Of a stretch of DNA of 46,068 bases, positions 2,308 to 45,880 are shown one piece after another. This stretch comes from a virus. The notes beneath the pieces are model-generated. The model was not told where the DNA came from. It ran no database searches and saw nothing but the letters and a program-made list of their open reading frames with translations. The DNA lies in the IMG/VR virus record IMGVR_UViG_3300045988_011650. The stretch is one strand, 5' to 3'. Numbering within the stretch: position 1 is the first letter of the stretch; every line of letters starts with the position of its first letter. A program made the position numbers and the translations under genes.

Positions 2308-2326
2308 TTCAATAGGAGTAAGCACT

Positions 2327-3343: not shown

Positions 3344-3359
3344 GAAAGGAGTATGCACA

Positions 3360-3788: not shown

Positions 3789-3808
3789 CGGATTGGGGGG
3801 GGGGATGT

Positions 3809-4201: not shown

Positions 4202-4214
4202 AGAAGGTGATTTT

Positions 4215-7592: not shown

Positions 7593-7854
7593 AGTGTGGG
7601 ATGCCCTGAAAAATCATGCCAAACAGGTTCATTCAGAACGGGTTGCAAAGAACCCCGACCGGATCGCCTATGCCATTCAGCAGTTTGAAGCCCACGGCAT
7701 TGAATACCAACTGAAAAATGAGCAAACAGGCCACTTCCATTGTTGGCGGAAGTCTGATGATAAACTGTTTCAATTCTACGCTGGAACGGGTAAAATTCAG
7801 GGCTTCACCCAAGTCAGAGGTATTCACAGCCTGATTCAGATGTTGGAGGGGTGA
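7579..7854 (+). CDS. Hypothetical protein
   Basis: Start set at MARDEVWDALKNH after GGAAGGTGG. Confidence 0.5.
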   Translation: MARDEVWDALKNHAKQVHSERVAKNPDRIAYAIQQFEAHGIEYQLKNEQTGHFHCWRKSDDKLFQFYAGTGKIQGFTQVRGIHSLIQMLEG

Positions 7855-7858
7855 GCCG

Positions 7859-8281
7859 ATGGCCGGTGAAAAGAACTTTGAAAACCGCCTGAAGAAGTGG
7901 TTGGAAAGTGAAGGGATTTATCCCTTGGGTGAACCAGTTGACCGCATGAGCGCCCCGCCCTGTGGCTTCTATGAAAAGCGTTGGGGTGGAAGCCGGTATG
8001 TGAAAAGCGGCCTTCCCGATATGCGGATCACCGTGAAGGGCATTGCCCTTGAAGTGGAGTTGAAAGCCACTAACGGAACCCCATCTGTGCTTCAGAAGCG
8101 GAATATTCGCCAAATCAATAATAGCGGCGGAATAGCAATGGTGCTATACCCACAAGGGTTTGACACATTCCAAGACATAATAAAGGGGGTGAAATCGTGT
8201 CCACAAGATTTTCCCATAGCCGGGTTGAAGTGTTTGATCGTTGCCCATTCAAATATCGGTTGCGATATGTTGATGGGTTAG
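7859..8281 (+). CDS. VRR-NUC-type PD-(D/E)XK nuclease
   Basis: GLPDMRITVKGIALEVELKATNGTPSVLQKRNIRQINNSGG; the 3' end overlaps the next gene by 85 nt. Confidence 0.7.
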   Translation: MAGEKNFENRLKKWLESEGIYPLGEPVDRMSAPPCGFYEKRWGGSRYVKSGLPDMRITVKGIALEVELKATNGTPSVLQKRNIRQINNSGGIAMVLYPQGFDTFQDIIKGVKSCPQDFPIAGLKCLIVAHSNIGCDMLMG

Positions 8282-10479: not shown

Positions 10480-10950
10480 ATGGCTATTGATTTTGACAAG
10501 ATTGATCGTTCTGTTGATCTGAAGGGCCTTCAGGCTGATGTGGAGGATGCCAAGAAGAACGGCGGCGGTGATTTCCCCACCATTCCCGCTGGCAAGTATG
10601 AAGTGAAGCTGGAAAGCATGGAGATCAAAGGCACCAAGGCTGATCCCAACCGCCCCATGCTGGCTGTGTCCTTCAAAATCCTGTCCGGTGAGTTCAAGAA
10701 CCAGCGCCTTTTCATGAACCGTGTCCTTTACGGCACCAAGAACGACAAGAACATGATCGCTTCCGCTATGGGCTTCCTTGAAAAGCTGGATTCCGGTGTT
10801 CCTGTCAGCTTCACCAGCTACAAGCAGTTTTCCCAGCTTGTTCTTGATGTGGCGGAAGCCATTGATGGAAACTTGGAATATGCGGTGGACTACGATGATT
10901 CCCGCTTCAATTCCATCACCGTTGAAGAAGTTTTCGAGGTTGAAAACTGA
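10480..10950 (+). CDS. DUF669-like protein (putative ssDNA-binding partner of the AAA_24 ATPase)
   Basis: FPTIPAGKYEVKLESMEIKGTKADPNRPMLAVSFKILSGEF pattern and position in the recombination module. Confidence 0.55.
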   Translation: MAIDFDKIDRSVDLKGLQADVEDAKKNGGGDFPTIPAGKYEVKLESMEIKGTKADPNRPMLAVSFKILSGEFKNQRLFMNRVLYGTKNDKNMIASAMGFLEKLDSGVPVSFTSYKQFSQLVLDVAEAIDGNLEYAVDYDDSRFNSITVEEVFEVEN

Positions 10951-31089: not shown

Positions 31090-33243
31090 TTGGCAACCAT
31101 TAGAACGGCAATCGCCCTATATGACGGTGTTACTGCCCCGCTGAAGTCCATGCACAAGGCTATGAACATTGTGCTGAACAGCTTTGAAGCCATGCAACGG
31201 GCTTCTGGTAATTCTGTGGACACTTCAGCCATTCGGGAAGCCCGTGAAGAACTGGCAAGAGCCGGGGCCGCCTTCGATTCCATTGAAGAAAATATTCGGA
31301 ATGCTGGCAACCAGCAAGACCGCTTCAACAGGCGGATCAGGGACGGCAGCACCGCCGCTGATGGCCTTTGGAGCAAGCTAAAAGGCATTGCGGCCACCGT
31401 GGGTGGGTTGGCGGCTGTAAAGAAAATTCCTGGGGTTTCTGACCAGCTTACCAGCACAAATGCCCGGTTGAATAACGCCATGATCAACTTTGATGATGGC
31501 GGTTCCCTTACTGACCTTGAAAAAAAGGTAATGGCTTCGGCGCAACGATCCAGAACTTCCTATATGGATGCCGCTTCTTCCATTGCAAAATTGGGCCTAA
31601 ATGCCCGTGATGCGTTTGGAAGTATGGATGAAGTGATTGCCTTCCAAGAACTGATTAACAAACAGTTTATTATTGGCGGTGCGAGTGTTCAGGAACAGCA
31701 AGCCGCCATGATCCAGCTTACCCAAGCAATGGCTTCCGGTGTGCTTCGTGGTGAAGAACTAAACAGCGTATTTGAACAGGCCCCCGGAATTATTCAGAGT
31801 ATAGCAGATTACTTGGATGTTTCCATTGGTGAAATCCGGGCTATGGCCGCAGAAGGTCAACTGACCGCCGATGTAGTGAAAAATGCCATGTTTGCGGCGG
31901 CGGATGATATTGAAACCAAGTTTTCAAATATGCCCAAAACTTGGGGGCAAATTTGGATCGGGATGAAGAACAAGGCCCTGTCTATCTTCAATCCTATTCT
32001 GAACAAGGTAAATCAAGTTGCTAATAGCGAAAAGTTCACCCAAGTAACGAATGGAGTTATCAACGGCCTTGCCGGGATCGCTTCTGTTGCAACGGTGGTG
32101 CTTGACCTTCTGATTGGCGGTGCCGCTTTGGTGGTGGATAATTGGTCATGGCTTGCCCCTATTGTTGGCGGTGTTGCAACGGCTTTTCTTGTTTTGAATG
32201 GAGCCATGCTTGCCTATAAAACAGTGACCGGCATTGTGAATGCGCTGGAAACCGTAAAGGCCGCAAGACTGGCTATGACTACCGTTGCAACCGGAGCACA
32301 GACCACCGCCACCTTTGCCCAAACAGAGGCCCAATACGGCCTGAATGCGGCTTTGATGGCTTGCCCCCTTACATGGATTATCATTCTGATTATCGCCCTT
32401 GTAGCCCTGTTCTATGCGGCTGTGGCGGCGGTCAATCATTTTGCAGGTACAAGCGTTTCCGCAACCGGCCTGATTTGTGGCGCATTTATGACGGCGCTGG
32501 CCTTCATCGGGAATATCTTTGTGGCCCTGTGGAACTTGGTTGTAGATGTGTTCGTGATGATCTACAACCTTGTGGCTACGGTTGCAAACTTCATCGGAAA
32601 TGTATTCAATGATCCGGTTGGGGCTGTGGCCCGTCTATTTTTCGACTTGGCGGACACGGTTCTTTCCGTCCTTCAGGCTTTGGCTTCGGCCATTGATACT
32701 ATCTTCGGTTCTAACCTTGCCGGTTCCGTCCAAGGCTGGCGTGACAGCTTGGGCGGTTGGGTGGATTCCACCTTTGGCAAGGGTGAAGAAATCATGGAAA
32801 AGCTGAATGCGGAAGATCTTCATTTGGGCCGCTTCGAGTATGGAGCCGCCTTTGATATGGGGTATGAATTCGGCCAAGGCGTGGAAGATACCGTGGGCGG
32901 CTTGTTCGACTTTTCCGCAATGGACAGCTTGGGGGCCGCTGATGGGCTGGATGCCTTCAACCTTGGGAACACCCTTGATGGTATCTATGGCAACACCGGG
33001 GACACAGCGGGGAACACCGCCGCCATGAGTGATGCCCTTGACATTGCGGAAGAAGATTTGGCCTATATGCGGGATATTGCCGAGCGGGAAGCAATCAACC
33101 GGTTCACCACCGCTGAAATCAAGGTTGAACAGCACAATGAAAACCACATTTCCAAAGATACCGACCTTGACGGGATTATGGATGCGTGGGCCAATGATTT
33201 TGCTGAAAAGCTGGATGTGTCTGAAGAAGGGGTGCATGAGTAA
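31090..33243 (+). CDS. Tail tape measure protein
   Basis: 717 aa; LTQAMASGVLRGEELNSVFEQAPGIIQSIADYL...GQLTADVVKNAM tape-measure core; central hydrophobic segments; TTG start after GAAGGTGA. Confidence 0.9.
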   Translation: MATIRTAIALYDGVTAPLKSMHKAMNIVLNSFEAMQRASGNSVDTSAIREAREELARAGAAFDSIEENIRNAGNQQDRFNRRIRDGSTAADGLWSKLKGIAATVGGLAAVKKIPGVSDQLTSTNARLNNAMINFDDGGSLTDLEKKVMASAQRSRTSYMDAASSIAKLGLNARDAFGSMDEVIAFQELINKQFIIGGASVQEQQAAMIQLTQAMASGVLRGEELNSVFEQAPGIIQSIADYLDVSIGEIRAMAAEGQLTADVVKNAMFAAADDIETKFSNMPKTWGQIWIGMKNKALSIFNPILNKVNQVANSEKFTQVTNGVINGLAGIASVATVVLDLLIGGAALVVDNWSWLAPIVGGVATAFLVLNGAMLAYKTVTGIVNALETVKAARLAMTTVATGAQTTATFAQTEAQYGLNAALMACPLTWIIILIIALVALFYAAVAAVNHFAGTSVSATGLICGAFMTALAFIGNIFVALWNLVVDVFVMIYNLVATVANFIGNVFNDPVGAVARLFFDLADTVLSVLQALASAIDTIFGSNLAGSVQGWRDSLGGWVDSTFGKGEEIMEKLNAEDLHLGRFEYGAAFDMGYEFGQGVEDTVGGLFDFSAMDSLGAADGLDAFNLGNTLDGIYGNTGDTAGNTAAMSDALDIAEEDLAYMRDIAEREAINRFTTAEIKVEQHNENHISKDTDLDGIMDAWANDFAEKLDVSEEGVHE

Positions 33244-33914
33244 TGGCATACAAAATGTACTTGGATGGTGTGCTTATGCCCATCACCCCTTCCAAGGTAA
33301 CGGTGAAGATCAATAACCAGAACAAAACCATGACGCTGATCAATGGGGAAGAGATCAACATTCTGAAAGCCGCCGCTTTGTCTGATGTTTCTTTTGAACT
33401 GTTGCTTCCCCAAGTTTCCTACCCCTTTACCAATGGGGGCGCACAATCGGCAAGCTATTACATTTCCCTGTTTGAACGGTTGAAAAACAGCAAAGAACCG
33501 TTTCAATGGATTTTGAACCGGCAACGCCCAGCGGGTGGGATGTTCTTCTATACCAACCTAACGGTTGGAATGGAAAATTATGAACTGGTTGATGATGCCG
33601 GAGCCGGATTTGATGTGAAGGTGAAAGTGAGCCTGAAACAATATAGGGCTTACGGCACAAAAACCGTCAAATTGAAACCGGCCCCCACACCGGCTGAAAA
33701 GCCGAAAGCAACAGTACAACCGGCCCCCCGTCCGGCACCTTCCGCCCCGAAAAAAAGCACCTACACTGTAAAAAGTGGGGATTGCCTTTGGAATATCGCC
33801 AAGAAATATCTTGGGGACGGTTCCAGATACAACGAAATTTATAATCTGAACAAGGATAAGATCAAAAATCCCAATCTGATCTATCCCAATCAGGTTCTTA
33901 CCTTGCCTTCCTGA
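33243..33914 (+). CDS. LysM-domain tail protein (XkdP-like)
   Basis: C-terminal YTVKSGDCLWNIAKKYLGDGSRYNEIYNLNKDKIKNPNLIYPNQVLTLP. Confidence 0.85.
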   Translation: MAYKMYLDGVLMPITPSKVTVKINNQNKTMTLINGEEINILKAAALSDVSFELLLPQVSYPFTNGGAQSASYYISLFERLKNSKEPFQWILNRQRPAGGMFFYTNLTVGMENYELVDDAGAGFDVKVKVSLKQYRAYGTKTVKLKPAPTPAEKPKATVQPAPRPAPSAPKKSTYTVKSGDCLWNIAKKYLGDGSRYNEIYNLNKDKIKNPNLIYPNQVLTLPS

Positions 33915-33928
33915 AAGGGGTGATCTGA

Positions 33929-34888
33929 ATGGCAGTTGAACTTTTCATTCAACACAATAGCACAATTCAATATCCGGTTGTTGAAGAAGGGGCAAAACTG
34001 ACCTTGGAGAGAAAAGGCACCCCCGGAAAGCTGGAATTTACGGTGGTCAAAGCCCCCGGATTGAACTTCCAAGAAGGTGATCCGGTGAAGCTGACGGTGG
34101 ACGGAACCCCCATGTTCTATGGCTTTGTTTTCAAGAAAAAGCGGGACAAGGGCGGAACCATTGATGTTGTGGCCTATGATCAGTTGCGGTATCTGAAGAA
34201 TAAAGACACCCTGACAGAAGAAGGGCTGAAGGCTTCCGATTTGCTGAAGCGGCTGGCTGGTGACTTCCGCCTAAACCTTGGGACGGTGGAAGATACCGGA
34301 TACACCATTGAAACCATTGTGGAGGAAAACCAAACGCTGTTTGATATGATCCAGAATGCCCTTGATGAAACCCTGATGAACACCAAACAGCTTTTTGTTC
34401 TCTATGATGATGTGGGCAAGCTGTCCCTGAAGAACATCAATTCCATGAAGCTGAACCTTCTGATTGATGAAGAAACCGGGGAAAACTTCAGCTATGAATC
34501 CAGCATTGATGAACAGACCTATAACAAAATCAAGTTGGCCTTCAACAATGAAAAAACCGGTAAGCGGGAACTGTTTATAGCCCAAGACGGGGAGAAAATG
34601 AACCAATGGGGTGTTCTTCAATATTTTGAAGAAGTTCAGACCAAAACCGGTGCTTCCGCCAAGGCCAACGCCCTGTTGAAGCTGTATGACCAAAAAACCC
34701 GCCACCTGACCATTCAAAATGCTTTAGGAGATGTTCGGGTAAGGGCCGGAAATGCGGTTGTGGTTGCCCTGAACCTTGGGGATATTATCACCAACAACTT
34801 TATGGTTGTGAACCGTGTAACCCACACTTTCCGGGATAATGAACACCGGATGGAACTTGACCTGATCGGGGGTGAATTTATTGCCTAA
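33929..34888 (+). CDS. XkdQ/YqbQ-like (late control D-like) baseplate hub protein
   Basis: Size and synteny after the LysM protein. Confidence 0.7.
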   Translation: MAVELFIQHNSTIQYPVVEEGAKLTLERKGTPGKLEFTVVKAPGLNFQEGDPVKLTVDGTPMFYGFVFKKKRDKGGTIDVVAYDQLRYLKNKDTLTEEGLKASDLLKRLAGDFRLNLGTVEDTGYTIETIVEENQTLFDMIQNALDETLMNTKQLFVLYDDVGKLSLKNINSMKLNLLIDEETGENFSYESSIDEQTYNKIKLAFNNEKTGKRELFIAQDGEKMNQWGVLQYFEEVQTKTGASAKANALLKLYDQKTRHLTIQNALGDVRVRAGNAVVVALNLGDIITNNFMVVNRVTHTFRDNEHRMELDLIGGEFIA

Positions 34889-35312
34889 CGCTGTGGAGGT
34901 AGTAAAAAAGGCGGCTGTGGAAGCCGTGGAAGCTGGAAAACCTGTGAACCTGTTGTTTGGTGAAGTTATTTCAGCTTCCCCCTTGAAAATTCAGGTTGAC
35001 CAAAAGGCCATTTACACTGAAAAAATGTTGGTGCTTACCCGGAATGTTACGGATTTTGAAGTTGATATGACGGTAAGCCACCGGACAGTTGTTATCAGTC
35101 ACGGCCACCCGGTAGTTGACACCTATACCGGCGGTGGTTCGGCCACCCCTGTTGACCACAACCACCCCATCAAGGGCCGAAAGAAATTCAAGGTTCACAA
35201 TGCCCTTGTAGTTGGGGATTGGGTCGTTCTGGCCCGGATGCAGAAGGGGAAAAAATTTGTGGTGCTGGATCGTATCAAAGCGAACCCGGCCCTGAAGGGG
35301 GAATGGCTATGA
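34872..35312 (+). CDS. XkdR-like (DUF2577) baseplate spike-associated protein
   Basis: Synteny; GKPVNLLFGEVISASPLKIQVDQK. Confidence 0.65.
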   Translation: MNLLPNAVEVVKKAAVEAVEAGKPVNLLFGEVISASPLKIQVDQKAIYTEKMLVLTRNVTDFEVDMTVSHRTVVISHGHPVVDTYTGGGSATPVDHNHPIKGRKKFKVHNALVVGDWVVLARMQKGKKFVVLDRIKANPALKGEWL

Positions 35313-35710
35313 TCCCACAGACCGGGGATGATTTGCGGCAGGATTTTGAATTTGAAACCCTTCCCAGCAGAACCTTCCGCCTGAACCATAACACTTTGAC
35401 CATCATCGGAACCATTGATGAAATTGAAGCGGTGGAACAGGCAGTATATCTGATTTTGAATACAGAACGGTATCAATGGTTGATCCATTCTTGGGATTAT
35501 GGGGTTGAACTTCATAACCTGATCGGAAAAGATGTGGAATATTGTATTCCAGAAATTGAACGGCGAATCCGGGAAGCCTTGCTTCAGGATGATAGGATCA
35601 CCGCCGTTGAAAACTTTGAATTCACAGTGAACAAAAAACAAGTGCTGACTACCTTCACGGTGGTCAGCATTTTTGGTGAAATCAACACAGAAATGGGGGT
35701 TGAAATCTGA
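35309..35710 (+). CDS. XkdS-like (DUF2634) baseplate protein
   Basis: MIPQTGDDLRQDFEFETLPSRTFRL...; ATGA overlap start. Confidence 0.65.
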   Translation: MIPQTGDDLRQDFEFETLPSRTFRLNHNTLTIIGTIDEIEAVEQAVYLILNTERYQWLIHSWDYGVELHNLIGKDVEYCIPEIERRIREALLQDDRITAVENFEFTVNKKQVLTTFTVVSIFGEINTEMGVEI

Positions 35711-36942
35711 TGTATGAAGCGCAAACCTATGAATCTATCTTGGCACGGATGCTTCAGAAGGCCCTTTCCATTAACAGCAACCTTGATACCCGTGAAGGTT
35801 CGTTGGTGTGGTATGGGGATGCCCCCGCCGCTGTGGAATTGCAGAACCTTTATATTGCCCTTGATACCGTGCTGAATGAAACCTTTGCCGATACCGCCAC
35901 CCGCCCTTATTTGATTTTGAGAGCGGCGGAACGGGGCCTTTCCCCGCAACCGGCAAGCCCCGCCATTTTGCAAATGGCAATTACACCCACTACTTTGTTC
36001 TTGCCGCTGAACACCCGCTTTTCCATTGGGGAATTGAACTATTATGTTTCGGCGGATCGGGGAAGCGGCAACTATGAATTGACCTGTGAAACGGCTGGTG
36101 AAGCTGGCAATAACTACACCGGAACGGTGATCCCCATTGAATATGTGGATGGCCTTGAAACCTGTAAAATCACTTCGGTGTTGGTTCCCGGTGAAGATGA
36201 AGAAGATACCGAACTTTTCAGACAAAGATACCTTAACAGCTTGAATGCCCAAGCCTTCGGCGGAAACCAGATTGACTATATTGAAAAGGTCAATGCCATT
36301 CCCGGCGTTGGTGGGGTGAAGGTTTACCGGGCTTGGAATGGGGATTTGAAACCGGCCAACATGATCCCGCCCAAGGAAGCTGAAGCGTGGATTGAGGGCC
36401 TTTCCGGGGTTCCCGAACCGGTGAAACTTTGGCTTGATACCGTTTATGCCGCCGCCAAGAACAATATGTTCACTGTGGGCGGAACTGTGAAGCTGGTGGT
36501 GATCAACAGCACCTTCACGGTTCCTTCCCCCACACTGGTAGAACAGGTTCAAACCGCCGTTGACCCCCTTCAGAATGCCGGGGAAGGCGTTGGAATTGCC
36601 CCCATCGGCCATGTGGTCAGGGTGGAAGGTGTTCAGGAAGAAACCGTTGATTTGGGCTTTGCCCTGTATTATCAACGGGGATGGTCTTGGGAAGATGTTT
36701 CCGGGTATGTCACGGAAGCAATTAACGGGTACTTCTTGGAACTGGCCCAAAGTTGGGCGGATCAGGATGAAGCCCTTGTGGTTCGTATCAGCCAAATTGA
36801 AAGCCGCCTGTTGGGTATCACCGGTATTTTGGATATTGCCAACACCACGATCAATGAAAAAGCCGCCAATCATACATTGGCCCTTGACCATATCCCGGTG
36901 TTGGGTTCCCTTGCACCAACCACTATTGAAATTAAGGCATAA
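35710..36942 (+). CDS. Baseplate J-like protein (XkdT-like)
   Basis: YESILARMLQKA...DTREGSLVWYGDAPAAVELQNLY; 410 aa. Confidence 0.85.
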   Translation: MYEAQTYESILARMLQKALSINSNLDTREGSLVWYGDAPAAVELQNLYIALDTVLNETFADTATRPYLILRAAERGLSPQPASPAILQMAITPTTLFLPLNTRFSIGELNYYVSADRGSGNYELTCETAGEAGNNYTGTVIPIEYVDGLETCKITSVLVPGEDEEDTELFRQRYLNSLNAQAFGGNQIDYIEKVNAIPGVGGVKVYRAWNGDLKPANMIPPKEAEAWIEGLSGVPEPVKLWLDTVYAAAKNNMFTVGGTVKLVVINSTFTVPSPTLVEQVQTAVDPLQNAGEGVGIAPIGHVVRVEGVQEETVDLGFALYYQRGWSWEDVSGYVTEAINGYFLELAQSWADQDEALVVRISQIESRLLGITGILDIANTTINEKAANHTLALDHIPVLGSLAPTTIEIKA

Positions 36943-36955
36943 GGGGTGGTGACTG

Positions 36956-37498
36956 ATGGAACGAAAACTGATTGATTACCTACCCTATGCGATGCGAGAT
37001 TTCAAGGAATATGAAGGGATCATGGAGAGTGAACAGCCTGAATTTGATCAGGCGTGGAACAATGCTGATGATCTTTTGAACAATCAGTTCATTTCCACCG
37101 CTGGAAATGTGGGCCTTTCCCGATGGGAAAAGATTTTGGAGATCACGCCCAAGGGGACTGACAGCCTTGAAGATCGCCGGTTCCGTATTTTGACCAGAAT
37201 CAATGAAGAACTTCCTTACACCCTTCCGCAACTTCGGAATATCCTTGAAACCCTTTGTGGGCCGGGGAACTATTCAGCGGATGTGGCAGAAGGAACCTAT
37301 CACCTGATTGTGAAAATTGGGTTGGCGGCAAAAAACAATTTCACCGATGTTGAATCCTTGCTGAACAGAGTGGTTCCACAAAACCTGATTGTAACCCTTC
37401 TTCAGCTCTATAACACCCACGCTGAACTTGGACGCTTTACCCACTCCCAGCTTGCCGCCCATACCCATGACCAATTAAGAAACGAGGTGCTTAACTGA
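36956..37498 (+). CDS. XkdU-like (DUF2313) tail protein
   Basis: LIDYLPYAMRDFKEYEGIMESEQPEFDQAWN...LSRWEKILEI. Confidence 0.75.
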   Translation: MERKLIDYLPYAMRDFKEYEGIMESEQPEFDQAWNNADDLLNNQFISTAGNVGLSRWEKILEITPKGTDSLEDRRFRILTRINEELPYTLPQLRNILETLCGPGNYSADVAEGTYHLIVKIGLAAKNNFTDVESLLNRVVPQNLIVTLLQLYNTHAELGRFTHSQLAAHTHDQLRNEVLN

Positions 37499-39354
37499 TG
37501 CCCAATCAAACCACAAACTATGGGCTGACCAAACCCCTTGCTTCTGAATTTTATGATGTTGAAGTTCAGAATGGCAACATGGACAAGATTGATGCCCAAA
37601 TGAAAACCAATGCCGATGGTATCAAAGACCTTCAGGATGGGCAGAAAAACAAGGCTGATTTGGTGGGTGGGAAGGTTCCCGCTGAACAGCTTCCCACTAT
37701 GGACTATGAAGCAAAGGGCACCGCTGAACAGGTTGTAACCACCCACGATGGAAACAAGAAAGCCCACCCCTATTTGTTGGGGCAGATTGAAACCTGTGTG
37801 ACAGCGGCGCAGAATGCCCAAGATGCCGCAGATGCGGCCTTGGAAGCTGTGTCCAAGATCGCTTTCACCATCAATGCGGTTCCCACTCAAAACGGTGTTC
37901 TGACCTATAACGGACAGGCCCAAAGCCCTTCTTGGAACAGCTATGATCCTAACGCCATGACCCTTGGGGGAGTGACTACCGGCACCGATGCCGGGACTTA
38001 TACGGCCACCTTCACCCCCAAGGAAAAATATCAATGGAGTGATGGCACCAAGACCGCAAAACAGGTTACATGGAAGATTGACCGGGCTTCTATGGCGGCA
38101 CCTACCCAAAGCGGAAGCCTTACCTTCAATGGTTCCCCGCAAAGCCCTTCTTGGTCGGGGTATGACACCGGGAAAATGACCCTTGGAGGAACTACCACAG
38201 GCACCAATGCGGGAAGCTATAACGCCACCTTTACCCCCAGTGCAAACTACAAATGGAGTGATGGAAGCACCGGTACAAAAACTGTGGTTTGGAGAATTGG
38301 GAAGGCCGCTGGAAGTTTGTCTTTGAATAAAACTTCCATGAAGCTGACCGCCGCCAAGAAAACAGACACCATCACAGTTACCAGAGCCGGTGACGGTGTT
38401 ATTACGGCCACTTCTAATGCGTCTGGCGTGGCTTCTGTGAGCGTTTCGGGCAACACGGTAACAGTTACCGCCAAGGCCAAGGGAAAGGCTACAATCACGG
38501 TTTCTGTGGCCGCTGGCACCAATCACAACGCCCCGGCAAATAAAACCTGTTCGGTTGAAGTGACCATGCCCACCAAAAACCTTTCTGATAATGATTGGGC
38601 CACCATTCGGGAAGTGAGTAGCGCCGGTTTGGGTGCCAACTATTGGGCTGTGGGTGATATGAAAGAAATCACCATCAATGGTAAAGTTGGCAACCACACC
38701 TTTAGCAATTTGAAGATCAATGTTTTCATCATCGGGTTCAATCACAATGCCGCCAAGGAAGGCAACAATCTGATTCACTTCCAGATTGGAAAGATGGGAA
38801 CAACCCCTGTGGCGCTGTGTGATGCAAAGTATGGTAATAGTATAAGCGGGGCTGGCTATTTCCACATGAATGATTCCAACACCAATGCTGGTGGCTGGAA
38901 TGGCTGTTCCAAACGGAAAACCTTGTATGGAAACACTGGCACCCCCACCAGCCCAATCAGCAATAGCTTGATGGCGGCGCTTCCGGCTGACCTTCGGGCC
39001 GTGATGCAACCTGTAACCAAATATACTGATAACACGGGCAATTCTTCCAATAGTGCGGGCAATGTTACCGCCACAAGGGATTACCTGTTTGATCTGGCCG
39101 AATTTGAAGTGTTTGGAGTAAGAAACTACGCCAACCAATATGAGCAGAACAGCCAACAGCAGTATGCTTATTATAAGGCCGGTAACAGTAAGGTTGCCAA
39201 TAATCATACCGCCGTGAATACGGCGGTTTGGTGGGGCCTTCGTTCCCCTTATTACAATCACAACAACTATTTCGTTATTGTCTGGACGGATGGCATCACC
39301 ACCGATACCATTGCCAATTATTCTGGTGGGTTGCGGCCCGGCTTTGCCGCCTAA
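37498..39354 (+). CDS. Tail fibre / receptor-binding protein; DGR target with a C-terminal variable region
   Basis: N-terminus MPNQTTNYGLTKP...; two Ig-like repeats plus a Big_2-like segment; C-terminal WWGLRSP...GGLRPGF carries the VR. Confidence 0.9.
   Translation: MPNQTTNYGLTKPLASEFYDVEVQNGNMDKIDAQMKTNADGIKDLQDGQKNKADLVGGKVPAEQLPTMDYEAKGTAEQVVTTHDGNKKAHPYLLGQIETCVTAAQNAQDAADAALEAVSKIAFTINAVPTQNGVLTYNGQAQSPSWNSYDPNAMTLGGVTTGTDAGTYTATFTPKEKYQWSDGTKTAKQVTWKIDRASMAAPTQSGSLTFNGSPQSPSWSGYDTGKMTLGGTTTGTNAGSYNATFTPSANYKWSDGSTGTKTVVWRIGKAAGSLSLNKTSMKLTAAKKTDTITVTRAGDGVITATSNASGVASVSVSGNTVTVTAKAKGKATITVSVAAGTNHNAPANKTCSVEVTMPTKNLSDNDWATIREVSSAGLGANYWAVGDMKEITINGKVGNHTFSNLKINVFIIGFNHNAAKEGNNLIHFQIGKMGTTPVALCDAKYGNSISGAGYFHMNDSNTNAGGWNGCSKRKTLYGNTGTPTSPISNSLMAALPADLRAVMQPVTKYTDNTGNSSNSAGNVTATRDYLFDLAEFEVFGVRNYANQYEQNSQQQYAYYKAGNSKVANNHTAVNTAVWWGLRSPYYNHNNYFVIVWTDGITTDTIANYSGGLRPGFAA
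37879..38307 (+). repeat. Two tandem ~70-aa Ig-like repeats inside the tail-fibre gene
   Basis: PTQNGVLTYNGQAQSPSWNSYDPNAMTLGGVTTGTDAGTYTATFTPKEKYQWSDGT versus PTQSGSLTFNGSPQSPSWSGYDTGKMTLGGTTTGTNAGSYNATFTPSANYKWSDGS. Confidence 0.8.
39222..39345 (+). repeat. DGR variable repeat (VR)
   Basis: 113/124 identical to TR 40267-40390; all 11 differences lie opposite TR adenines. Confidence 0.9.
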
Positions 39355-39382
39355 TCCCCCGCAGGATGATCCCGGCCTTATC

Positions 39383-39402
39383 CCGCCCCCGGAAGGGGGC
39401 GG
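39383..39402 (+). promoter_or_regulatory. GC hairpin downstream of VR (candidate DGR target-recognition stem-loop)
   Basis: CCGCCCCC-GGAA-GGGGGCGG, perfect 8-bp stem and 4-nt loop, 38 nt after the VR end. Confidence 0.6.
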
Positions 39403-39435
39403 TTCCGGGAGGGACCCCCAAAGAAAAATAAGAAT

Positions 39436-39463
39436 GGCGGCGTAAGCCGCCCGACGATTTTTT
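39436..39463 (+). terminator. Candidate terminator after the tail-fibre gene
   Basis: GGCGGC-GTAA-GCCGCC, then cgacga and T6. Confidence 0.5.
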
Positions 39464-39573
39464 GAAAATGGGGGTTTTCCGGTAAAGTGCTATCATTTGA
39501 CTGTCTTTTGAGTGCATACACCGGACAAAATCAGCCATACAATATCCATAAGCCTGTTTGAAGGGGGTATTGT

Positions 39574-39762
39574 ATGGCAACAAACAAGCGTGTTTTCACC
39601 TTGCGCCTATCCGATGAAGTCTTTGACAAGATCGGGGCGCTTGCAACCCGTGAACACCGATCTATCACCAATTACATTGAATTTGTCCTTCTGAAGCACT
39701 TGGAAGAAGTGGAAAAGGCGGAAGGAACGATCAATGTCGATAATTCACCCAAAGGGGTATAA
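39574..39762 (+). CDS. Ribbon-helix-helix (Arc/CopG-like) DNA-binding protein
   Basis: KRVFTLRLSDEVFDKIGALATREHRSITNYIEFVLLKHLEE (beta strand, helix, helix pattern); RBS AAGGGGG. Confidence 0.7.
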   Translation: MATNKRVFTLRLSDEVFDKIGALATREHRSITNYIEFVLLKHLEEVEKAEGTINVDNSPKGV

Positions 39763-39768
39763 CTGAAA

Positions 39769-40230
39769 ATGTCTGTCCTGAAGCAAAAGAGAACCACAAG
39801 CAAGGCCGAGTTCATCAACACGGCCAATCAGATTTATGTTGAAACCCTGAACTTCCTGACCCGTCTTTCAGCCCGGTATTCACGGTTGATTGCGGAGCCG
39901 GTGGCAAAGCTGGCCGGTGAGATCATCGACCATGCAGAGAAGGCCAACAGTATTTTTCCTTCGGACAACCAGCGCATTGAAATGAGGAAGGCCCATCTTC
40001 TTGAAGCACGGGCTTCCCTGATGGCGCTGGATGTTCGCTTGACCCATGTTTACCTGATTCTGAACCAGAACCCGGAAGGGGCCTTTACCACTTCCAAGGG
40101 GAATCCGGTGAAGTCACAGGATGCAATGGAAAAGCTGGATAAGATGGCCCAAAACTTGGGTGAACTGATCGACAAAGAAAACGAACTTCTGAAAGGAGCA
40201 ATCAAAAATGTAACAGCAAAACAGAAATGA
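39769..40230 (+). CDS. avd: Avd-like helical-bundle DGR accessory protein (putative)
   Basis: 153 aa, predicted all-helical, sits directly upstream of TR as avd does in canonical DGRs; HLLEARASLMALDVRL. Confidence 0.55.
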   Translation: MSVLKQKRTTSKAEFINTANQIYVETLNFLTRLSARYSRLIAEPVAKLAGEIIDHAEKANSIFPSDNQRIEMRKAHLLEARASLMALDVRLTHVYLILNQNPEGAFTTSKGNPVKSQDAMEKLDKMAQNLGELIDKENELLKGAIKNVTAKQK

Positions 40231-40266
40231 TTTCCTATTAGGTGCGTGACTGTTAATGTGTCCTCT

Positions 40267-40390
40267 GGCGGTTTGGTGGGGCCTTCGTTCCCCTAATTAC
40301 AATAACAACAACAATTTCGTTATTGTCTGGACGGATGGCAACAACAACAATAACAATGCCAATAATTCTGGTGGGTTGCGGCCCGGATTT
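40267..40390 (+). repeat. DGR template repeat (TR)
   Basis: Adenine-rich (33 A by my count); 12 AAY codons when read in the VR frame; non-coding position between avd and the RT gene. Confidence 0.9.
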
Positions 40391-40630
40391 TGCAGATATA
40401 CACGGTCAAATGTAGTAACAGAAGGCAAACGGCTTTTCAGGTGAAAGACGACCGATGTAAAAGGAGTTGCGCTTCCTTGGGTGTAAATCCCTAAAACTGC
40501 CCTTTGATGCCCTTACACGGACGCTTCTTGCATGGTGGGCGATTGTGCCTTAACCCATTTCATGTGTAAGAGCAAAGCAATTTAGACGGCACCCTACAAG
40601 ATATTTGTACGAGGGGCGAATACTTTTATT
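40267..40630 (+). ncRNA. DGR template RNA (TR plus ~240-nt spacer before the RT gene)
   Basis: No credible ORF between the TR end and the RT start; by analogy with known DGRs the TR-spacer RNA is the RT template and primer. Confidence 0.5.
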
Positions 40631-41803
40631 ATGACAAGCCAAGAACGGCATGAAGCGAGGTTCCAGCGCCGCAAAGCAAAGCGGTTGGAACGGAAACAGG
40701 CCCGGTGTGATAGCCTTGGGTCAACGAATAAAATATTTTCCTATCGGAAGATGTTCTTCTACGGGAAAAAGTGCTGTAACGGGGTGCGGTGGAAGCAAAG
40801 TGTTCAAAACTTTGAAGGCCACCTGTTTTCTGGTACGGCAACACGGCGGCGAATGGTGTTGGAACAGACTTGGAAACCAAAATCCTGTTCCCATTTCACC
40901 CTTCGGGAACGGGGAAAAATCCGCCCGATAGATGCCCCGCACATTACGGATCGACAAATCCACAAAACCCTGTGTAATGAAGTCCTGATCCCGTTGTATT
41001 CCCCTTCTATGATCTATGACAACGGCGCAAGCCAAAAGGGAAAGGGCCTTCATTGGCAGTTCAAACGGATCAAACAACAGCTTGGATGGCATTACCGGCG
41101 CTATGGCCGGGAAGGTGCTGTGTTGCTGTTGGATTTGAAAGGGTTCTTTCCAAACGCTTCCCACGCCCTGTTATATCAGCGGCACCGGGAATTGATTTTG
41201 AATCCTGAACTTCAAAACTTGGCTGATACTGTAATCCGGTATTCCCCATGCCCGACACCGGGCCGGGGGATGCCTTTGGGCGTGGAGCCTTCCCAACAGG
41301 AAATGGTGGCGTTACCAAGTAAAATTGACCAATGGATCAAGTGTCAGGCCCGTGTTCATTGCGCCGGTCATTACATGGATGATTACTATGCGTTCTTCCC
41401 CACGGTGGATGAAGCAAAGCTGATGGGCCATGAAATTGTACGGCGTTTTGAAGCCGCTGGAATCAAAGTGAACAAGCGTAAATGTAAGGTGATCCCGCTT
41501 ACAAAGCCATTCCGGTTCTGTAAAGCACGGTTCACCCTTACCGAAACCGGCAAGATCAAGGTGAATGGAAGCCGGGATGGAGTGAAACGGGCAAGGCGAA
41601 AGCTGAAGCTGTTTCACAAAGAGTTCAAAGAGGGAAAACGATCCTTCTTTGACATAGAACAATACATGGAGTGCCAAAGCGCCTATTACCGGAACTTCAA
41701 CGATCATGGACGGTTGTTAAGGTCGCGGCGGCTTTACCATGCAATCTTTTTCGGAGGTGGACAATGTTTAGAATCATCAAAGCCGGGGCCGGTATCGGCC
41801 TGA
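40631..41803 (+). CDS. DGR reverse transcriptase
   Basis: RPIDAPHITDRQIH, LLLDLKGFFPN (motif A), GMPLGVEPSQ (DGR-type [LIV]GxxxSQ), HYMDDYYAF (YMDD). Confidence 0.9.
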   Translation: MTSQERHEARFQRRKAKRLERKQARCDSLGSTNKIFSYRKMFFYGKKCCNGVRWKQSVQNFEGHLFSGTATRRRMVLEQTWKPKSCSHFTLRERGKIRPIDAPHITDRQIHKTLCNEVLIPLYSPSMIYDNGASQKGKGLHWQFKRIKQQLGWHYRRYGREGAVLLLDLKGFFPNASHALLYQRHRELILNPELQNLADTVIRYSPCPTPGRGMPLGVEPSQQEMVALPSKIDQWIKCQARVHCAGHYMDDYYAFFPTVDEAKLMGHEIVRRFEAAGIKVNKRKCKVIPLTKPFRFCKARFTLTETGKIKVNGSRDGVKRARRKLKLFHKEFKEGKRSFFDIEQYMECQSAYYRNFNDHGRLLRSRRLYHAIFFGGGQCLESSKPGPVSA

Positions 41804-42372
41804 CCGAGAACCTGAACTACATCAAAAAAGCCGAAAATGGTTGCTACATCCTTTGCCCGGAGCATGATGCTTCGGGCATTGTTTTTGAGGGTGTGGCTTA
41901 CCATTTGTTGGGCCGTGCCGCTATGGATGAACTGGAAACGGTGAGTTTGGAACAGACGGACGCAGGAAGCGAGATCACCAAGGCCACGGAAGCCGGTGGA
42001 ATCGTCTTTGTAACCTTGGCGGAAGCCGGGAGCATTGACGCTGAAACGGCGGCGGAACACGCTGATTTGTTCGCTGAATGGGCTTTCCCTGTTGGCTACA
42101 CGGTGGGGCAGATTCGCCGGTATAACGGAACCCTTTACAAGTGCGTTCAGGCCCATACTTCCCAAGCGGATTGGACACCGGACACGGCTTCCAGTCTGTG
42201 GAGCAAAACGAGTGATCCCGCTGAAGAATGGCCCGAATGGAGCCAACCGGTGGGAGCGCATGACGCTTATTCCAAGGGGGCAAAGGTGAGCCATAAGGAA
42301 AAGCACTGGATTTCCACGGTGGATTCCAATGTGTGGGAACCCGGTGTATATGGTTGGGAGGAATCGGCTTAA
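41764..42372 (+). CDS. CBM5/12-like carbohydrate-binding repeat protein (tail accessory candidate)
   Basis: Start at MFRIIKAG after GGAGGTGG, overlapping the RT gene 3' end by 40 nt; YNGTLYKCVQAHTSQADWTPDTASSLWSK and YSKGAKVSHKEKHWISTVDSNVWEPGVYGWEE. Confidence 0.65.
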   Translation: MFRIIKAGAGIGLTENLNYIKKAENGCYILCPEHDASGIVFEGVAYHLLGRAAMDELETVSLEQTDAGSEITKATEAGGIVFVTLAEAGSIDAETAAEHADLFAEWAFPVGYTVGQIRRYNGTLYKCVQAHTSQADWTPDTASSLWSKTSDPAEEWPEWSQPVGAHDAYSKGAKVSHKEKHWISTVDSNVWEPGVYGWEESA

Positions 42373-42770
42373 TGGAGTATAAAATCTATATTTGCCGCAA
42401 ACGGGCCAAATTCAAAGCAATTTGCGGACAAGTGAACATTCGGTATGGAACCATCCTGAATTGTCAGGGTGGTTTTTTGATTCTGAATGATCTTCCGGTG
42501 TGTTCCGTAACCAGCCAAAACGCCTATGACTTCTTTACCCAAAATGATGATGGCATGGGCGAGGAAAGGGGCGAACTTCTGAACCGGATCACCGCAACGC
42601 TGATGAAGCAGACCCCCGGACACAACGCCCGGTGGGGGAAGATTTGGGAAGATGCCCTTTGTCAGAAGTACAAGCGCCCGGATCAGGAAGAACATTGGAT
42701 TTGGAACTTCGACTTCTATAACGGCCCCGTTGAAGATTTGCGCCACATTGCCGCCCTGATTGGGGCCTGA
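42372..42770 (+). CDS. Hypothetical protein
   Basis: Start at MEYKIYICRK (TAATG overlap), 132 aa. Confidence 0.55.
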   Translation: MEYKIYICRKRAKFKAICGQVNIRYGTILNCQGGFLILNDLPVCSVTSQNAYDFFTQNDDGMGEERGELLNRITATLMKQTPGHNARWGKIWEDALCQKYKRPDQEEHWIWNFDFYNGPVEDLRHIAALIGA

Positions 42771-42785
42771 CAGGAGGGGAAAGCC

Positions 42786-43097
42786 ATGACAATTTATCAG
42801 GTGTTGTGCTTGATTGGTGTTCCCACCTTGATTTTGGCGGTATTCAAATACCTGTGGAGCCAAATCAAGCATAACACCGAGGATTCCAAGGCTTTGAAGG
42901 CCGGTATTCAGGCCCTTCTTCGGGCGCAGATGATCAGCGATTTCAATAAGTATTCCGAAAAAGGCTATGCCCCGATCTATGCACGGGATAATTTTGAAAA
43001 TTGCTGGAAGCAGTATCATTCTTTGGGGGTGAATGGGGTGATGGACGATCTTCACAGAAAATTCTTGGAGTTGCCCACCGATCCCCCGGAAGAATGA
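42786..43097 (+). CDS. Single-pass membrane protein (lysis-cassette associated)
   Basis: N-terminal IYQVLCLIGVPTLILAVFKYLW transmembrane segment. Confidence 0.55.
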   Translation: MTIYQVLCLIGVPTLILAVFKYLWSQIKHNTEDSKALKAGIQALLRAQMISDFNKYSEKGYAPIYARDNFENCWKQYHSLGVNGVMDDLHRKFLELPTDPPEE

Positions 43098-43145
43098 GTA
43101 GACGAACCAAAAAGCCAAAGCGTGAGTTTTCCAAACTGATCTTGT

Positions 43146-43364
43146 ATGTGGTGGGGGGCCGTGACCGTTGGGGTTACGGCCTTCACCCTTATTATGATTT
43201 GGCGCACGGAAAACCTTGAACCGCTGGCCTATCTAATTCCCGCCGTGTTCGCAGAATTGGCAACTGCAACCGGGTTTTACTATTCCAAAGCCAAGGCCGA
43301 AAACCGGATCAAACTTCGGAAACTATACGGCCCTGAAATTTATAACGATGCAAAGGAGATTTGA
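43146..43364 (+). CDS. Two-TM holin-like protein; the longest intact frame of a gene that may start at 43094
   Basis: AVTVGVTAFTLIMIW and LAYLIPAVFAELATATGFYY transmembrane segments; no RBS before 43146; see the G6 frameshift finding. Confidence 0.5.
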   Translation: MWWGAVTVGVTAFTLIMIWRTENLEPLAYLIPAVFAELATATGFYYSKAKAENRIKLRKLYGPEIYNDAKEI

Positions 43365-43367
43365 ACC

Positions 43368-43751
43368 ATGCTGAACGCTGTTTTGAACAACCTGATCAAT
43401 ATTGGGTGGGCCATGCTGATCTTCCTGTGTGCGTACCTGTCCAATGTAGCCTTTTCCCTTTACTACAACATCAAGGTTTTGCTTCAGCCCTTCGACAGAC
43501 AGAAGATGATCAATTCCGGGCTGAAGGTTGCCACCTTCGTTGTGGGCCTGACCTTGCTTTGTGTAGCAATCACCACCCTTCCGATTTATGCGGATCAGCT
43601 TGGGTGGGCAATCCCGGAAGAATACACAGAAATTTTTGCTGATTTGGTCATTGTGGGCGCTGTGCTGATGGTGTCTTGTAAGTATATCGCAGAAGCCTTC
43701 ACCAAGTTCAGGGCTATTCTTCAGGTGAAAGGAGATACAGAAAATGAGTAA
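43368..43751 (+). CDS. Holin (multi-TM)
   Basis: Three or four hydrophobic segments, charged C-terminus, RBS AAGGAG, immediately upstream of the endolysin gene. Confidence 0.75.
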   Translation: MLNAVLNNLINIGWAMLIFLCAYLSNVAFSLYYNIKVLLQPFDRQKMINSGLKVATFVVGLTLLCVAITTLPIYADQLGWAIPEEYTEIFADLVIVGAVLMVSCKYIAEAFTKFRAILQVKGDTENE

Positions 43752-44547
43752 TTCCCCCCTTGCAACCTATACCCGGATCACGAAAAACAAAACCAGCCCC
43801 CGGAACCATGCCATTGACACCATCACGATTCATTGTATCGTTGGGCAATGGACAGCAAAACAGGGGTGTGATTATTTCGCAACCACAAACCGGCAATGTT
43901 CCGCCAACTATGTTGTTGGTAAGGATGGTTCCATTGGCCTTTCCGTGGATGAAAAGGATCGTTCTTGGTGTTCCAGCAACGGCACCAATGACAACCGGGC
44001 AATCACCATTGAAGTTGCTTCTGACACCACCCACCCTTACGCCGTCACCGCCAAGGCTTATGCGGCCCTGTTGGATTTGGTAACGGATATTTGCAAGCGG
44101 AACGGGATCAAGAAGTTGGTATGGAGTACGAACAAGAATGACCGTGTGAACCATCGGAACGGATGCAACATGACCGTTCACCGTGACTTCGCCAACAAAG
44201 CCTGTCCGGGGGAATATCTTTATTCCAGACACGGGGAGATTGCCGCAGAAGTCAACAGAAGGCTTCAGGGCGCTTCCAATGGTGGTGAGGTAGTAGTTAC
44301 ACCCCCAGCCGCAGAAAAGCCCATAGGCGGCACCACAGGGGCCACCGTGACCCCTTACCTTGTGCGGGTGAAGATCACCAACCTGAATATCCGTAAAGGC
44401 CCCGGCACAAACTACGGTGCAACCGGCTACATCCAGCCCGGTATTTATACCATCGTGGCCGAAAGCACCGGTAAAGGTGCGGCCAAGTGGGGCAAACTGA
44501 AAAGCGGTGCCGGGTGGATTTCCCTTGACTACGCCACTAAAACCTGA
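43744..44547 (+). CDS. Endolysin: N-acetylmuramoyl-L-alanine amidase (Amidase_2) plus SH3b-like cell-wall-binding domain
   Basis: IDTITIHCIVGQW...SANYVVGKDGSIGL...NDNRAITIEVASD...HRDFANKACPG; C-terminal VKITNLNIRKGPGTNYGATGYIQPGIYTI...WGKLKSGAGWISLDY. Confidence 0.9.
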   Translation: MSNSPLATYTRITKNKTSPRNHAIDTITIHCIVGQWTAKQGCDYFATTNRQCSANYVVGKDGSIGLSVDEKDRSWCSSNGTNDNRAITIEVASDTTHPYAVTAKAYAALLDLVTDICKRNGIKKLVWSTNKNDRVNHRNGCNMTVHRDFANKACPGEYLYSRHGEIAAEVNRRLQGASNGGEVVVTPPAAEKPIGGTTGATVTPYLVRVKITNLNIRKGPGTNYGATGYIQPGIYTIVAESTGKGAAKWGKLKSGAGWISLDYATKT

Positions 44548-44558
44548 CCATGAGAAAA

Positions 44559-44592
44559 GGCCCTTCCGGTTCAAGCTGGAAGGGCCTTTTTT
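44559..44592 (+). terminator. Rho-independent terminator of the late/lysis operon
   Basis: GGCCCTTCC-10 nt-GGAAGGGCC followed by T6. Confidence 0.85.
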
Positions 44593-44717
44593 GCGTGTTT
44601 CTACTATGTTACTAATAACCCCGATTTCACCGAACTTCAAAGGGCTGAAATGTTTAGTATTTGGGTGCTTCAGAGCGTTGCAGAGTAGAAATATTTATGG
44701 TACAATAAAAACAGACG

Positions 44718-44757
44718 AACCCCGAACCCTTGATTTTTCAGGGGTTCGGGGTTTTCT
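44718..44757. terminator. Strong hairpin between the convergent lysis and int genes
   Basis: AACCCCGAACCC-12 nt-GGGTTCGGGGTT, then TTCTT. Confidence 0.5.
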
Positions 44758-44817
44758 TGTTACTAATGTGTGCATAGTTCAGCGTTCAGCGGCCTAAAAT
44801 GTTCACAGGTTTGAACC

Positions 44818-45831
44818 CTATGGAATCAGTTCCACGGTGGCCTTCAGTTCGCCCAAAGTCTTGTGATTATAGACCCGGTTTCCCGTGTCCTTGGACACAT
44901 GACCCATGAGCAAATCAATACATTTCCGGTTGGCCCCGGCGCTATCCAATTTGGTTTCAAAGGTGTGGCGGCATTCGTGCGGGGTATGGTTCAGCTTCAG
45001 GGCTTTCATAATATCCGCCCAAAATATCCGGTATTGGGTTTGGTTGCAAACTTTCCCGTTGTAGCTGATCAGCCGGGGGCCACCTTCGGCAAGCCGCCGT
45101 TCAATCAAGGGCCTGATCTTTGGATGGATGGGAACAATGCGGTTCTTACCGGCTTTCGTTTTGGTGCCGCCCTTCATCGTGCCTTCCTTCAAGTCTATAT
45201 CTTCAGGTTTCAGGTTCAGAAATTCAGAGATACGCCACCCGGAATATAGCAAGATCAAAACCGTATCAACCCAAGGATCAGACTGATGTTCCCAAACCGT
45301 TTTGATTTCATCGTTGGTGAACGGAAGGCGGCTGGTGGGCGGTATTGGATCAGAAGTCAGAAGTTCGGAGAAGCACCGGTTTATTATATCCATTTCAAGG
45401 GCGAACCGGTCAAGGTGGCCCCACAGGTTCTTGATGGCCGCTTGGGTGCTATACCCTTTCCCACAACCATCAATGGTTTCTTGCATTTGGTAGGATCGCA
45501 GTTGTTTATAAGGCTTGTTCACATACGCTGAACAATGCTTGAACGCTGAACAGAGGGAAGAACGGTTGGATTCCCCCAGCTTCGGGGCCTTCTTTTCTTT
45601 CCAGAGGTCAAAAAGCTGTTGAAGGGTGATCTTGGCCCGGTCAACATCCCAAGGATCACGGTTGTATTCAGCAAGCATGATGTTCCCGGCTTCACGGGTT
45701 TCAGCATAGCCGATAATGTCATAGATGGGGTGGCCTTTGTCATTCCAACCTATGGTTTTCTTCACAATGTATGGGCGGCGGCGTTGGCCTGATAGCTTTG
45801 CAACCGTTCCATACCCGTTTGGATTTCGCAT
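44818..45831 (-). CDS. int: Tyrosine integrase with N-terminal arm-type DNA-binding domain
   Basis: Start at MRNPNGYGTVAKLSGQRRRPYIVKK after AGGTGA; catalytic GWRISEF, HECRHTF, MGHVSKDTGNRVYNH. Confidence 0.9.
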   Translation of the reverse strand: MRNPNGYGTVAKLSGQRRRPYIVKKTIGWNDKGHPIYDIIGYAETREAGNIMLAEYNRDPWDVDRAKITLQQLFDLWKEKKAPKLGESNRSSLCSAFKHCSAYVNKPYKQLRSYQMQETIDGCGKGYSTQAAIKNLWGHLDRFALEMDIINRCFSELLTSDPIPPTSRLPFTNDEIKTVWEHQSDPWVDTVLILLYSGWRISEFLNLKPEDIDLKEGTMKGGTKTKAGKNRIVPIHPKIRPLIERRLAEGGPRLISYNGKVCNQTQYRIFWADIMKALKLNHTPHECRHTFETKLDSAGANRKCIDLLMGHVSKDTGNRVYNHKTLGELKATVELIP

Positions 45832-45880
45832 TATATCACCTGAACTTTCAAAATTGGGTATGGCAAAGCTAAACCCCATG

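Follow-up and report, generated by a model that had tools for sequence, protein, structure and literature searches.

A diversity-generating retroelement acting on the tail fibre of a gut Oscillospiraceae phage, and the long-range helices of its RT-2 spacer RNA

The window analysed here is a 46,068-nucleotide (nt) stretch of viral DNA, IMG/VR record IMGVR_UViG_3300045988_011650, and we are highly confident that its region 37498-41803 is a complete diversity-generating retroelement (DGR) that acts on the tail fibre and belongs to a temperate phage (prophage) with a contractile tail whose hosts are gut Oscillospiraceae. The parts of the element described below all lie on the plus strand, in the order target gene, accessory gene, template repeat (TR) and reverse transcriptase (RT) gene. 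A preliminary description, made from the letters alone, had proposed a DGR acting on the tail fibre with the gene order of Bordetella phage BPP-1; the map of open reading frames (ORFs) shows that order, and the proposal itself is borne out by mismatches to the variable repeat (VR) that fall on TR adenines only, an RT of DGR type, a hairpin with a GRNA-type loop and a structured spacer RNA. Upstream of the element lie genes for a tail sheath, tape measure, baseplate wedge and tail protein, and downstream lie an endolysin gene and an integrase gene.

A repeat search returned VR at 39222-39345 and TR at 40267-40390, two 124-nt copies with 91% identity at a spacing of 1045, the coordinates first described. 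Realigning the copies base by base gave 113 of 124 identical positions, and each of the 11 mismatches is an A in TR. Earlier readings of these sites and of the VR bases proved right: TR positions 40295, 40304, 40313, 40341, 40344, 40347, 40349, 40353, 40356, 40364 and 40387 stand opposite T, C, T, T, C, C, G, C, T, T and C, respectively. With 33 adenines among the 124 nt of TR, the chance that 11 of 11 random mismatches fall on A is 1.1e-7. VR occupies the 3' end of ORF 37498-39354, stopping 9 nt short of the ORF end, and its mutable positions (39250-39320) are flanked by adenine-free 5' homology (39222-39249) and a GC-rich, adenine-free 3' end (39325-39341). TR lies in the 400-nt gap that separates ORF 39769-40230 from the RT gene (40631-41803), where a 62-aa ORF (40256-40444) is TR itself in the VR frame. 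Searching both strands of the window with whole and partial TR revealed no second VR-like TR copy.

Read in the VR frame, TR holds 14 Asn codons, all AAY, of which ten are altered in VR; the preliminary description had the altered codons right but counted 12 in TR, although its own peptide string shows 14 N. Ten of the 11 mismatches change an AAY codon at its first or second position, and the remaining one, 40387, is the third position of a Gly codon. Opposite A40387, VR position 39342 is C in all 15 VRs that go with this TR, and a G[A in TR / C in VR]T site is kept in 90 of 93 TR/VR pairs of the family. Because the difference is fixed in both sets, it is a boundary mark of the IMH/IMH* type (IMH, initiation of mutagenic homing) at the 3' limit of information transfer and not a product of mutagenesis, a possibility that had been raised when the repeat was first described. 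Removing this site leaves ten mutagenic differences at 32 mutable adenines, which are spread over the 14 AAY codons and four other codons. An A-to-N change at these adenines never yields a stop, so the C-terminal surface of the target protein is free to vary over the roughly 7e18 protein variants possible from them.

The target gene (37498-39354) comes directly after the baseplate genes, in the tail-fibre slot, and encodes a 618-aa protein with Ig-like repeats and a C-terminal DUF6273 domain (Pfam, aa 460-616, E 1e-11) that ends in VR. An alignment of 31 homologs showed this domain to be conserved save for two patches, SPxYxxxxxF and DGxxxxxxAxxS, which are the A-templated codons. We modeled the last 199 aa with AlphaFold2 (AF2; pLDDT 81) and compared the model to known and predicted structures. 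The best match in BFVD was a phage 'tail-collar fiber protein' (E 5e-21), along with many DUF6273 phage proteins, and the sole convincing match in the PDB was the DUF6273 domain at the N-terminus of the T. ramosa IgA peptidase (PMC12402451). DUF6273 has been termed C-lectin-like (PMC10743442).

The RT has 344 relatives in IMG/VR, and prophages whose RTs are 97-98% identical to it were found in the isolates Faecousia intestinalis, Pseudoflavonifractor sp. MSJ-37, Faecalibacterium tardum and Oscillospiraceae CM74B_53B. Comparing VR among related phages had been suggested as a check on the DGR, and the variation it revealed is A-templated. Fourteen related contigs carry a TR that differs from that of the window by 0-2 nt, and together with the window these 15 genomes have 15 different VRs on a constant TR. 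Each of the 33 TR adenine positions differs from TR in at least one VR; 32 of them vary among the VRs, while position 121 is always C. Non-adenine TR polymorphisms recur in the VR of their own genome (T7G in L036 and L061, T58C in L025; L-numbers label the related contigs and prophage loci compared here), which shows that information flows from TR to VR.

Two isolate prophages, L084 and L086, are identical at 10,037 of 10,060 nt (99.77%). VR, with its 124 nt, accounts for 21 of the 23 differences between them, and all but one of these 21 are at TR adenines. Near-identical prophages that differ in this way at A-templated VR sites are clean natural experiments. Positions 1-10060 of both correspond to about 34650-44710 of the window, and their hosts, Faecousia intestinalis CLA-AA-H192 and Faecalibacterium tardum CLA-AA-H175, are named as different genera. 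Near-identical prophages across named genera could reflect a broad host range tied to the DGR, or carry-over within one strain collection.

For the wider family set we compared 93 pairs in which TR and VR are 100 nt or longer; RT identity across the set ranges from 43 to 100%. Across these pairs 1401 mismatches fall at TR adenines and 89 elsewhere, and 63 pairs differ at adenines only. Much of the non-adenine count comes from four chimera-like contigs, L005, L023, L062 and L070. The latter two carry the TR of one scaffold class with the VR of the other and show 35-36 mismatches, about half of them at non-A positions; L005 and L023 have just 27 and 19 TR adenines, compared to 33 in the window. 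These four contigs may be assembly chimeras, recent recombinants, or cases in which TR was overwritten by VR-like sequence. The two scaffold classes themselves (L012, L033 and L044, for example, against the TR of the window) differ at 18 of 124 nt while their RTs remain about 97% identical, and their frameworks read WWGLRSP..FVIVWTDG..SGGLRPG and WWWLRSP..F.xVxTDG..SAGVRPG. Many public contigs, including L001, L002, L004, L006, L015, L041, L042, L046, L054, L059 and L063, start or end in or beside VR or TR because the hypervariable repeat disrupts short-read assembly, and as a result close homologs of the target protein have seldom been recorded at full length.

The spacer between TR and the RT gene is filled by a full-length match to the Rfam RNA family RT-2 (RF03077) at 40401-40637, which covers model positions 1-222 of 222 and scores 165.3 bits against a gathering threshold of 40. 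The same position is matched in 11 of 11 distant relatives and in phage Pioen. Weinberg et al. (2017) linked only RT-10 to a DGR, any such link for the other RT motifs being speculation (PMC5737381). Within the window copy the first stem-loop spans about 40404-40453 and is followed by two stretches, 40456-40462 and 40465-40477, both of which are drawn unpaired in the Rfam model.

Both of these stretches covary with partners outside the RT-2 model. The second (40465-40477) pairs with a 5' arm of the DGR RNA at 40240-40251 (AGGUGCGUGACU) in an 11-bp helix, a putative clamp for which it provides the 3' arm; 98.9% of cells are paired over 33 distinct sequences, with compensatory changes in 7 pairs, compared to at most 70% paired in slid controls. 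The first (40456-40462, UGUAAAA) pairs with the 3' flank of TR (40388-40394, UUUUGCA), which lies just 3' of the last transferred TR base. This 7-bp helix has 91.5% of cells paired and compensatory changes in 6 of 8 pairs among 28 distinct relatives, and its slid controls reach at most 50%. The frames of both long-range helices were set by sequence anchors outside the tested pairs, as unconstrained RNAduplex runs of the sequence upstream of TR against the spacer were too noisy. By analogy, the helix 40388-40394/40456-40462 would be the counterpart of the TR:Sp priming duplex of BPP-1 (bioRxiv 10.1101/2023.10.23.563531), with 40456-40462 as its spacer half.

Signals of a target site lie downstream of VR. 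A GC hairpin or cruciform at 39383-39402, CCGCCCCC-GGAA-GGGGGCGG, has an 8-bp stem and a 4-nt loop of the GRNA type, matching the 7-10 bp GC stem with a GRNA loop that homing in BPP-1 requires (PMC3240598). At 31-48 nt past VR, 62 of 69 distinct relatives have a hairpin with 6 or more stem pairs and a loop of 4 nt, where shuffled sequences predict 1.4; the same test after TR found 3 of 54. Loops in the relatives are mostly GAAA, GCAA, GGAA or GACA. Compensatory changes occur in 8 of 8 stem pairs, although the percentage of paired positions is inflated here by the selection of frames with a hairpin finder.

Between VR and the hairpin stand three ATC words: CTAATC, which includes the stop codon, GATC and TATC, with their ATC at 39354-39356, 39369-39371 and 39380-39382. 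All but one of 53 distinct relatives have two to four such words in this interval, with a mean of 2.70 where shuffled sequences give 0.75, and none is found downstream of TR in the window. The ATC array is possibly part of the target-recognition sequence. Farther on, at 39436-39463, is a second GC hairpin (GGCGGC-GTAA-GCCGCC) with a T6 run 7 nt after it, which may be the terminator of the tail-fibre gene; the terminator scan gave a minus-strand reading of it only.

Directly upstream of TR, ORF 39769-40230 encodes a 153-aa accessory protein with a pI of 9.45. Its AF2 monomer model (pLDDT 84) has four long helices, and its best natural structural match is 2gsc, chains A-E (probability 0.99-1.0, E about 0.07), an S23p protein that forms a homopentamer of four-helix bundles (PMC4990558). 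Avd proteins have a mean pI of 9.5 +/- 0.7 and are 'very poorly conserved' (Wu et al., PMC5758913). A homolog lies directly upstream of TR in all related loci with enough upstream DNA except one (L089), and these homologs are often better conserved than the RT (58-65% identity compared to 43-50%). We also tested for membership in the Avd family by sequence and found none. Ten distant homologs, drawn from a search of 1.8 billion proteins, had no Avd-type Pfam match, and hhalign was negative against bAvd, the Avd of the Bordetella phage, alone and against the bAvd family profile (profile-profile probability 0.1), while bAvd as a control scored 123 bits on PF22296 (bAvd-like). The label Avd in the preliminary description thus holds for size, charge, fold and position, whereas sequence similarity to bAvd is undetectable; the protein appears Avd-like by its position, charge and modeled fold, with homology unproven. 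Sequence-based DGR annotation would miss an accessory protein of this kind.

The RT gene (40631-41803) encodes 390 aa that match Pfam RVT_1 (E 2e-12), and the LLLDLKGFF, LGVEPSQ and YMDD motifs reported earlier are all present in its translation. The best solved relative is bRT of the Bordetella phage (8ub7_A, E 7e-7), with 24% identity over 235 aa; in this alignment LGVEPSQ falls on IGSLTSQ of bRT and R98 on R74. DGR RTs carry the signature [I/V/L]GxxxSQ where other RTs carry QGxxxSP (PMC7826257), and this RT has the DGR form in LGVEPSQ, together with a catalytic YxDD. Among named relatives the closest, at 68% identity, come from three Faecalibacterium phages that bear DGRs: Pioen, Taranis and Roos.

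These parts suggest a mechanism, modeled by homology to the BPP-1 system. A transcript reaching from at least 40240 to about 40637 would hold TR between the 5' arm and the RT-2 spacer; a promoter and terminator scan of 39300-42000 found nothing above chance, so we do not propose a transcription start. Pairing of the 5' arm (40240-40251) with 40465-40477 would clamp TR, and pairing of the TR 3' flank (40388-40394) with 40456-40462 would set a spacer adenosine, about A40462, as a cis-primer by the TR 3' end. By analogy, cDNA synthesis would then be primed at about 40462, next to TR 40387. The RT and the basic four-helix accessory protein would together copy TR into cDNA, placing any base opposite the 32 mutable adenines and otherwise copying faithfully. 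The cDNA would replace VR 39222-39345 in the tail-fibre gene, guided by the GC-rich VR end, the fixed IMH-type difference at 39342 and the GGAA-loop hairpin at 39383-39402. The DUF6273 receptor-binding surface would in this way take about 7e18 sequences, re-tuning host recognition. Of this picture, the sequences directly show the anatomy of the repeat, its adenine-only mismatches, the intactness of every part, the RNA helices (through covariation) and diversification among close relatives; the priming site, the part played by the accessory protein, integration of the cDNA and activity of the window copy are inferred.

A more specific proposal, to which we give slightly better than even odds, is that RT-2 is only the 3' part of the DGR RNA of this family. 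Its 'unpaired' stretches would dock the TR 3' flank, in a priming duplex that places about A40462 beside TR A40387, and the 5' arm, in a clamp or stop duplex. Under the same proposal the accessory protein has diverged from Avd past sequence recognition, and the target is marked by the fixed A/C IMH difference and the three-ATC array. If true, an abundant gut-phage family would provide a second model of how DGRs achieve cis-priming guided by RNA and recognize their targets, one that evolved independently and is defined at the sequence level.

Several observations speak against parts of a complete and working DGR. Structural matches of the accessory protein are generic four-helix bundles only, the best natural one with an E of about 0.07, and no sequence match to it was found in Pfam, NCBIfam, PADLOC or the PDB (by phmmer, and for the PDB with a family profile too). 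In fold searches the target domain was linked to no proteins other than those with DUF6273, its C-type lectin matches being local and not significant. The proposed priming adenosine and the proposed roles of the two helices come from analogy with BPP-1. About 6% of the mismatches in relatives are at non-adenine positions. Finally, activity of this copy is inferred from its intact parts and from its relatives.

The last of these bears on the alternative that survives best, namely that the element is a DGR by descent whose present copy is inactive, VR being the frozen product of past mutagenic homing. In its favor, some relatives are out of step, with one mismatch in L094, six in L147, and TR and VR of unmatched classes in L062 and L070. 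In the window, on the other hand, every part is intact: neither ORF is interrupted, the RT retains its YMDD and LGVEPSQ motifs, RT-2 spans its whole model (165 bits), the GGAA loop of the hairpin is of the consensus type, and no pair is missing from either RNA helix. Among near-identical relatives, some of them cultured lysogens, hardly any differences lie outside VR. We consider an inactive copy unlikely and favor a functional DGR.

The pattern of mismatches also bears on whether TR could be a plain copy of the tail-fibre 3' end, left by duplication or recombination, that diverged by chance beside an unrelated RT. Phage tail-fibre genes often have duplicated or exchanged 3' cassettes, and two TR/VR scaffold classes do occur among phages with 97% identical RTs. 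The adenine bias refutes divergence by chance: 11 of 11 mismatches at adenines would arise with a chance of about 1e-7, and the 93 independent pairs of the family set repeat the bias at 1401 to 89. In addition, TR is invariant while the VR of every genome differs, and TR, RNA and RT are syntenic down to 43% RT identity, which leaves a chance duplication with almost no credibility.

Equally hard to sustain is an RT of another class (group II intron, retron, or Abi/DRT defence) that does not act on the repeat. Group II intron RT (TIGR04416), Drt3a and UG-type defence RTs were matched weakly, with scores far under the curated cutoffs (47 bits against 300 for TIGR04416, 21 against 200 for Drt3a), and the PADLOC matches were generic RT only. 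Rfam gives RT-2 but neither an intron nor a retron RNA, with no group II intron in 39000-42000. The signature reads [L]GxxxSQ and not QGxxxSP (PMC7826257), the best solved relative is bRT, and the nearest named ones are Faecalibacterium phage DGR RTs.

The DGR of the window belongs to a family that has already been described, since every part of the cassette has its homolog in Pioen (PP479940), and Taranis (NC_047914) and Roos (PP479939) carry the same kind of cassette. Compared to Pioen, the DUF6273 target with its C-terminal VR is 57% identical, the accessory protein (152 aa in Pioen) 75% and the RT 68%, and Pioen also has an RT-2 RNA between TR and RT (175 bits). DUF6273 targets with a C-terminal VR and A-specific variation have been published for Pioen, Roos, Lelie and CP11 (PMC11792537), in a description that leaves the accessory protein and RNA unmentioned, with 0 uses of 'Avd' or 'accessory'. 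Pioen, Taranis and Roos are of a different phage lineage, with no nucleotide-level match to the window in the DGR region, and the window family has other Oscillospiraceae as hosts. The window also differs from them in the N-terminus of its target and in a ribbon-helix-helix (RHH) gene inserted between the target and accessory genes. A megablast of the cassette against GenBank phages returned only two unannotated fragments, neither of which has a VR.

Resemblance to BPP-1 (mtd-avd-TR-brt) extends from the gene order to the position of VR at the tail-fibre gene 3' end, the AAY-rich TR, and the GC-rich, adenine-free 3' end with its IMH/IMH*-type difference. Past VR, both systems have a GC hairpin of 8 bp whose loop is of the GRNA type (PMC3240598); in both, the spacer RNA has two pairing partners, the 3' end of TR and a segment upstream of TR (bioRxiv 10.1101/2023.10.23.563531); and both RTs carry the signature [I/V/L]GxxxSQ. 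In contrast, the RTs are just 24% identical, the accessory protein of the window is 25 aa longer with no detectable similarity to bAvd (hhalign 0.1), its spacer RNA is Rfam RT-2 and not RT-10 (PMC5737381), and its target domain is DUF6273 and not the Mtd fold. The hairpin of the window starts 38 nt past the VR homology, just outside the published 4-34 bp.

Relative to Rfam RT-2 (RF03077) as catalogued, the window shares a full-length, high-scoring match directly upstream of an RT gene. What differs is that the match here lies between TR and a DGR RT, and that the two unpaired stretches of the model covary with the TR 3' flank and the 5' arm. The findings go slightly beyond published accounts in identifying RT-2 as the DGR RNA of this family with two long-range helices, an Avd-like protein missed by sequence methods, and a conserved ATC array. 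The RT-2 motif thereby gains a function as well as partners at long range. In principle this biology was known already; what the element illustrates is the way in which a phage lineage very common in the human gut goes on re-tuning its receptor-binding tip, and the existence of cultured lysogens makes the predictions testable.

The RHH gene (39574-39762, 62 aa) lies between the target and accessory genes and encodes an Arc/CopG/RelB-like protein, with a Pfam RHH_7 match below the cutoff (E 3e-4) and a PHROG match to an Arc-like repressor (E 5e-6). It was found in only about 16 of 55 related genome loci, and could be an optional passenger or regulator of the DGR operon, or an unrelated insertion, rather than a core DGR part. 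Overlapping the 3' end of the RT gene with its start, ORF 41764-42372 contains a carbohydrate-binding CBM_5_12 module (E 1e-14) and may encode a second host-surface-binding or a lysis-associated protein. In the tail module, a 223-aa protein (33243-33914) matches an endolysin PHROG (E 1e-74) and is probably a tail-associated lysin; the window has an endolysin/amidase at 43744-44547 besides.

The integrase gene (44818-45879) is on the minus strand. Homology to all four isolate prophages ends at window positions 44707-44713, where L084 and L086 diverge completely from each other, which probably puts the phage attachment site at about 44707-44817, beside the integrase gene. Downstream of the RT, at a distance of a few kb, other relatives have a tmRNA gene and tRNA genes (L144 8679-9045, L087 11371-11443 and L128 9357-9429, all on the minus strand), and these are likely integration sites. 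Near a related Acutalibacter prophage, L109 has a match to the type II hammerhead ribozyme at 10564-10652 on the minus strand (40.9 bits, gathering threshold 37).

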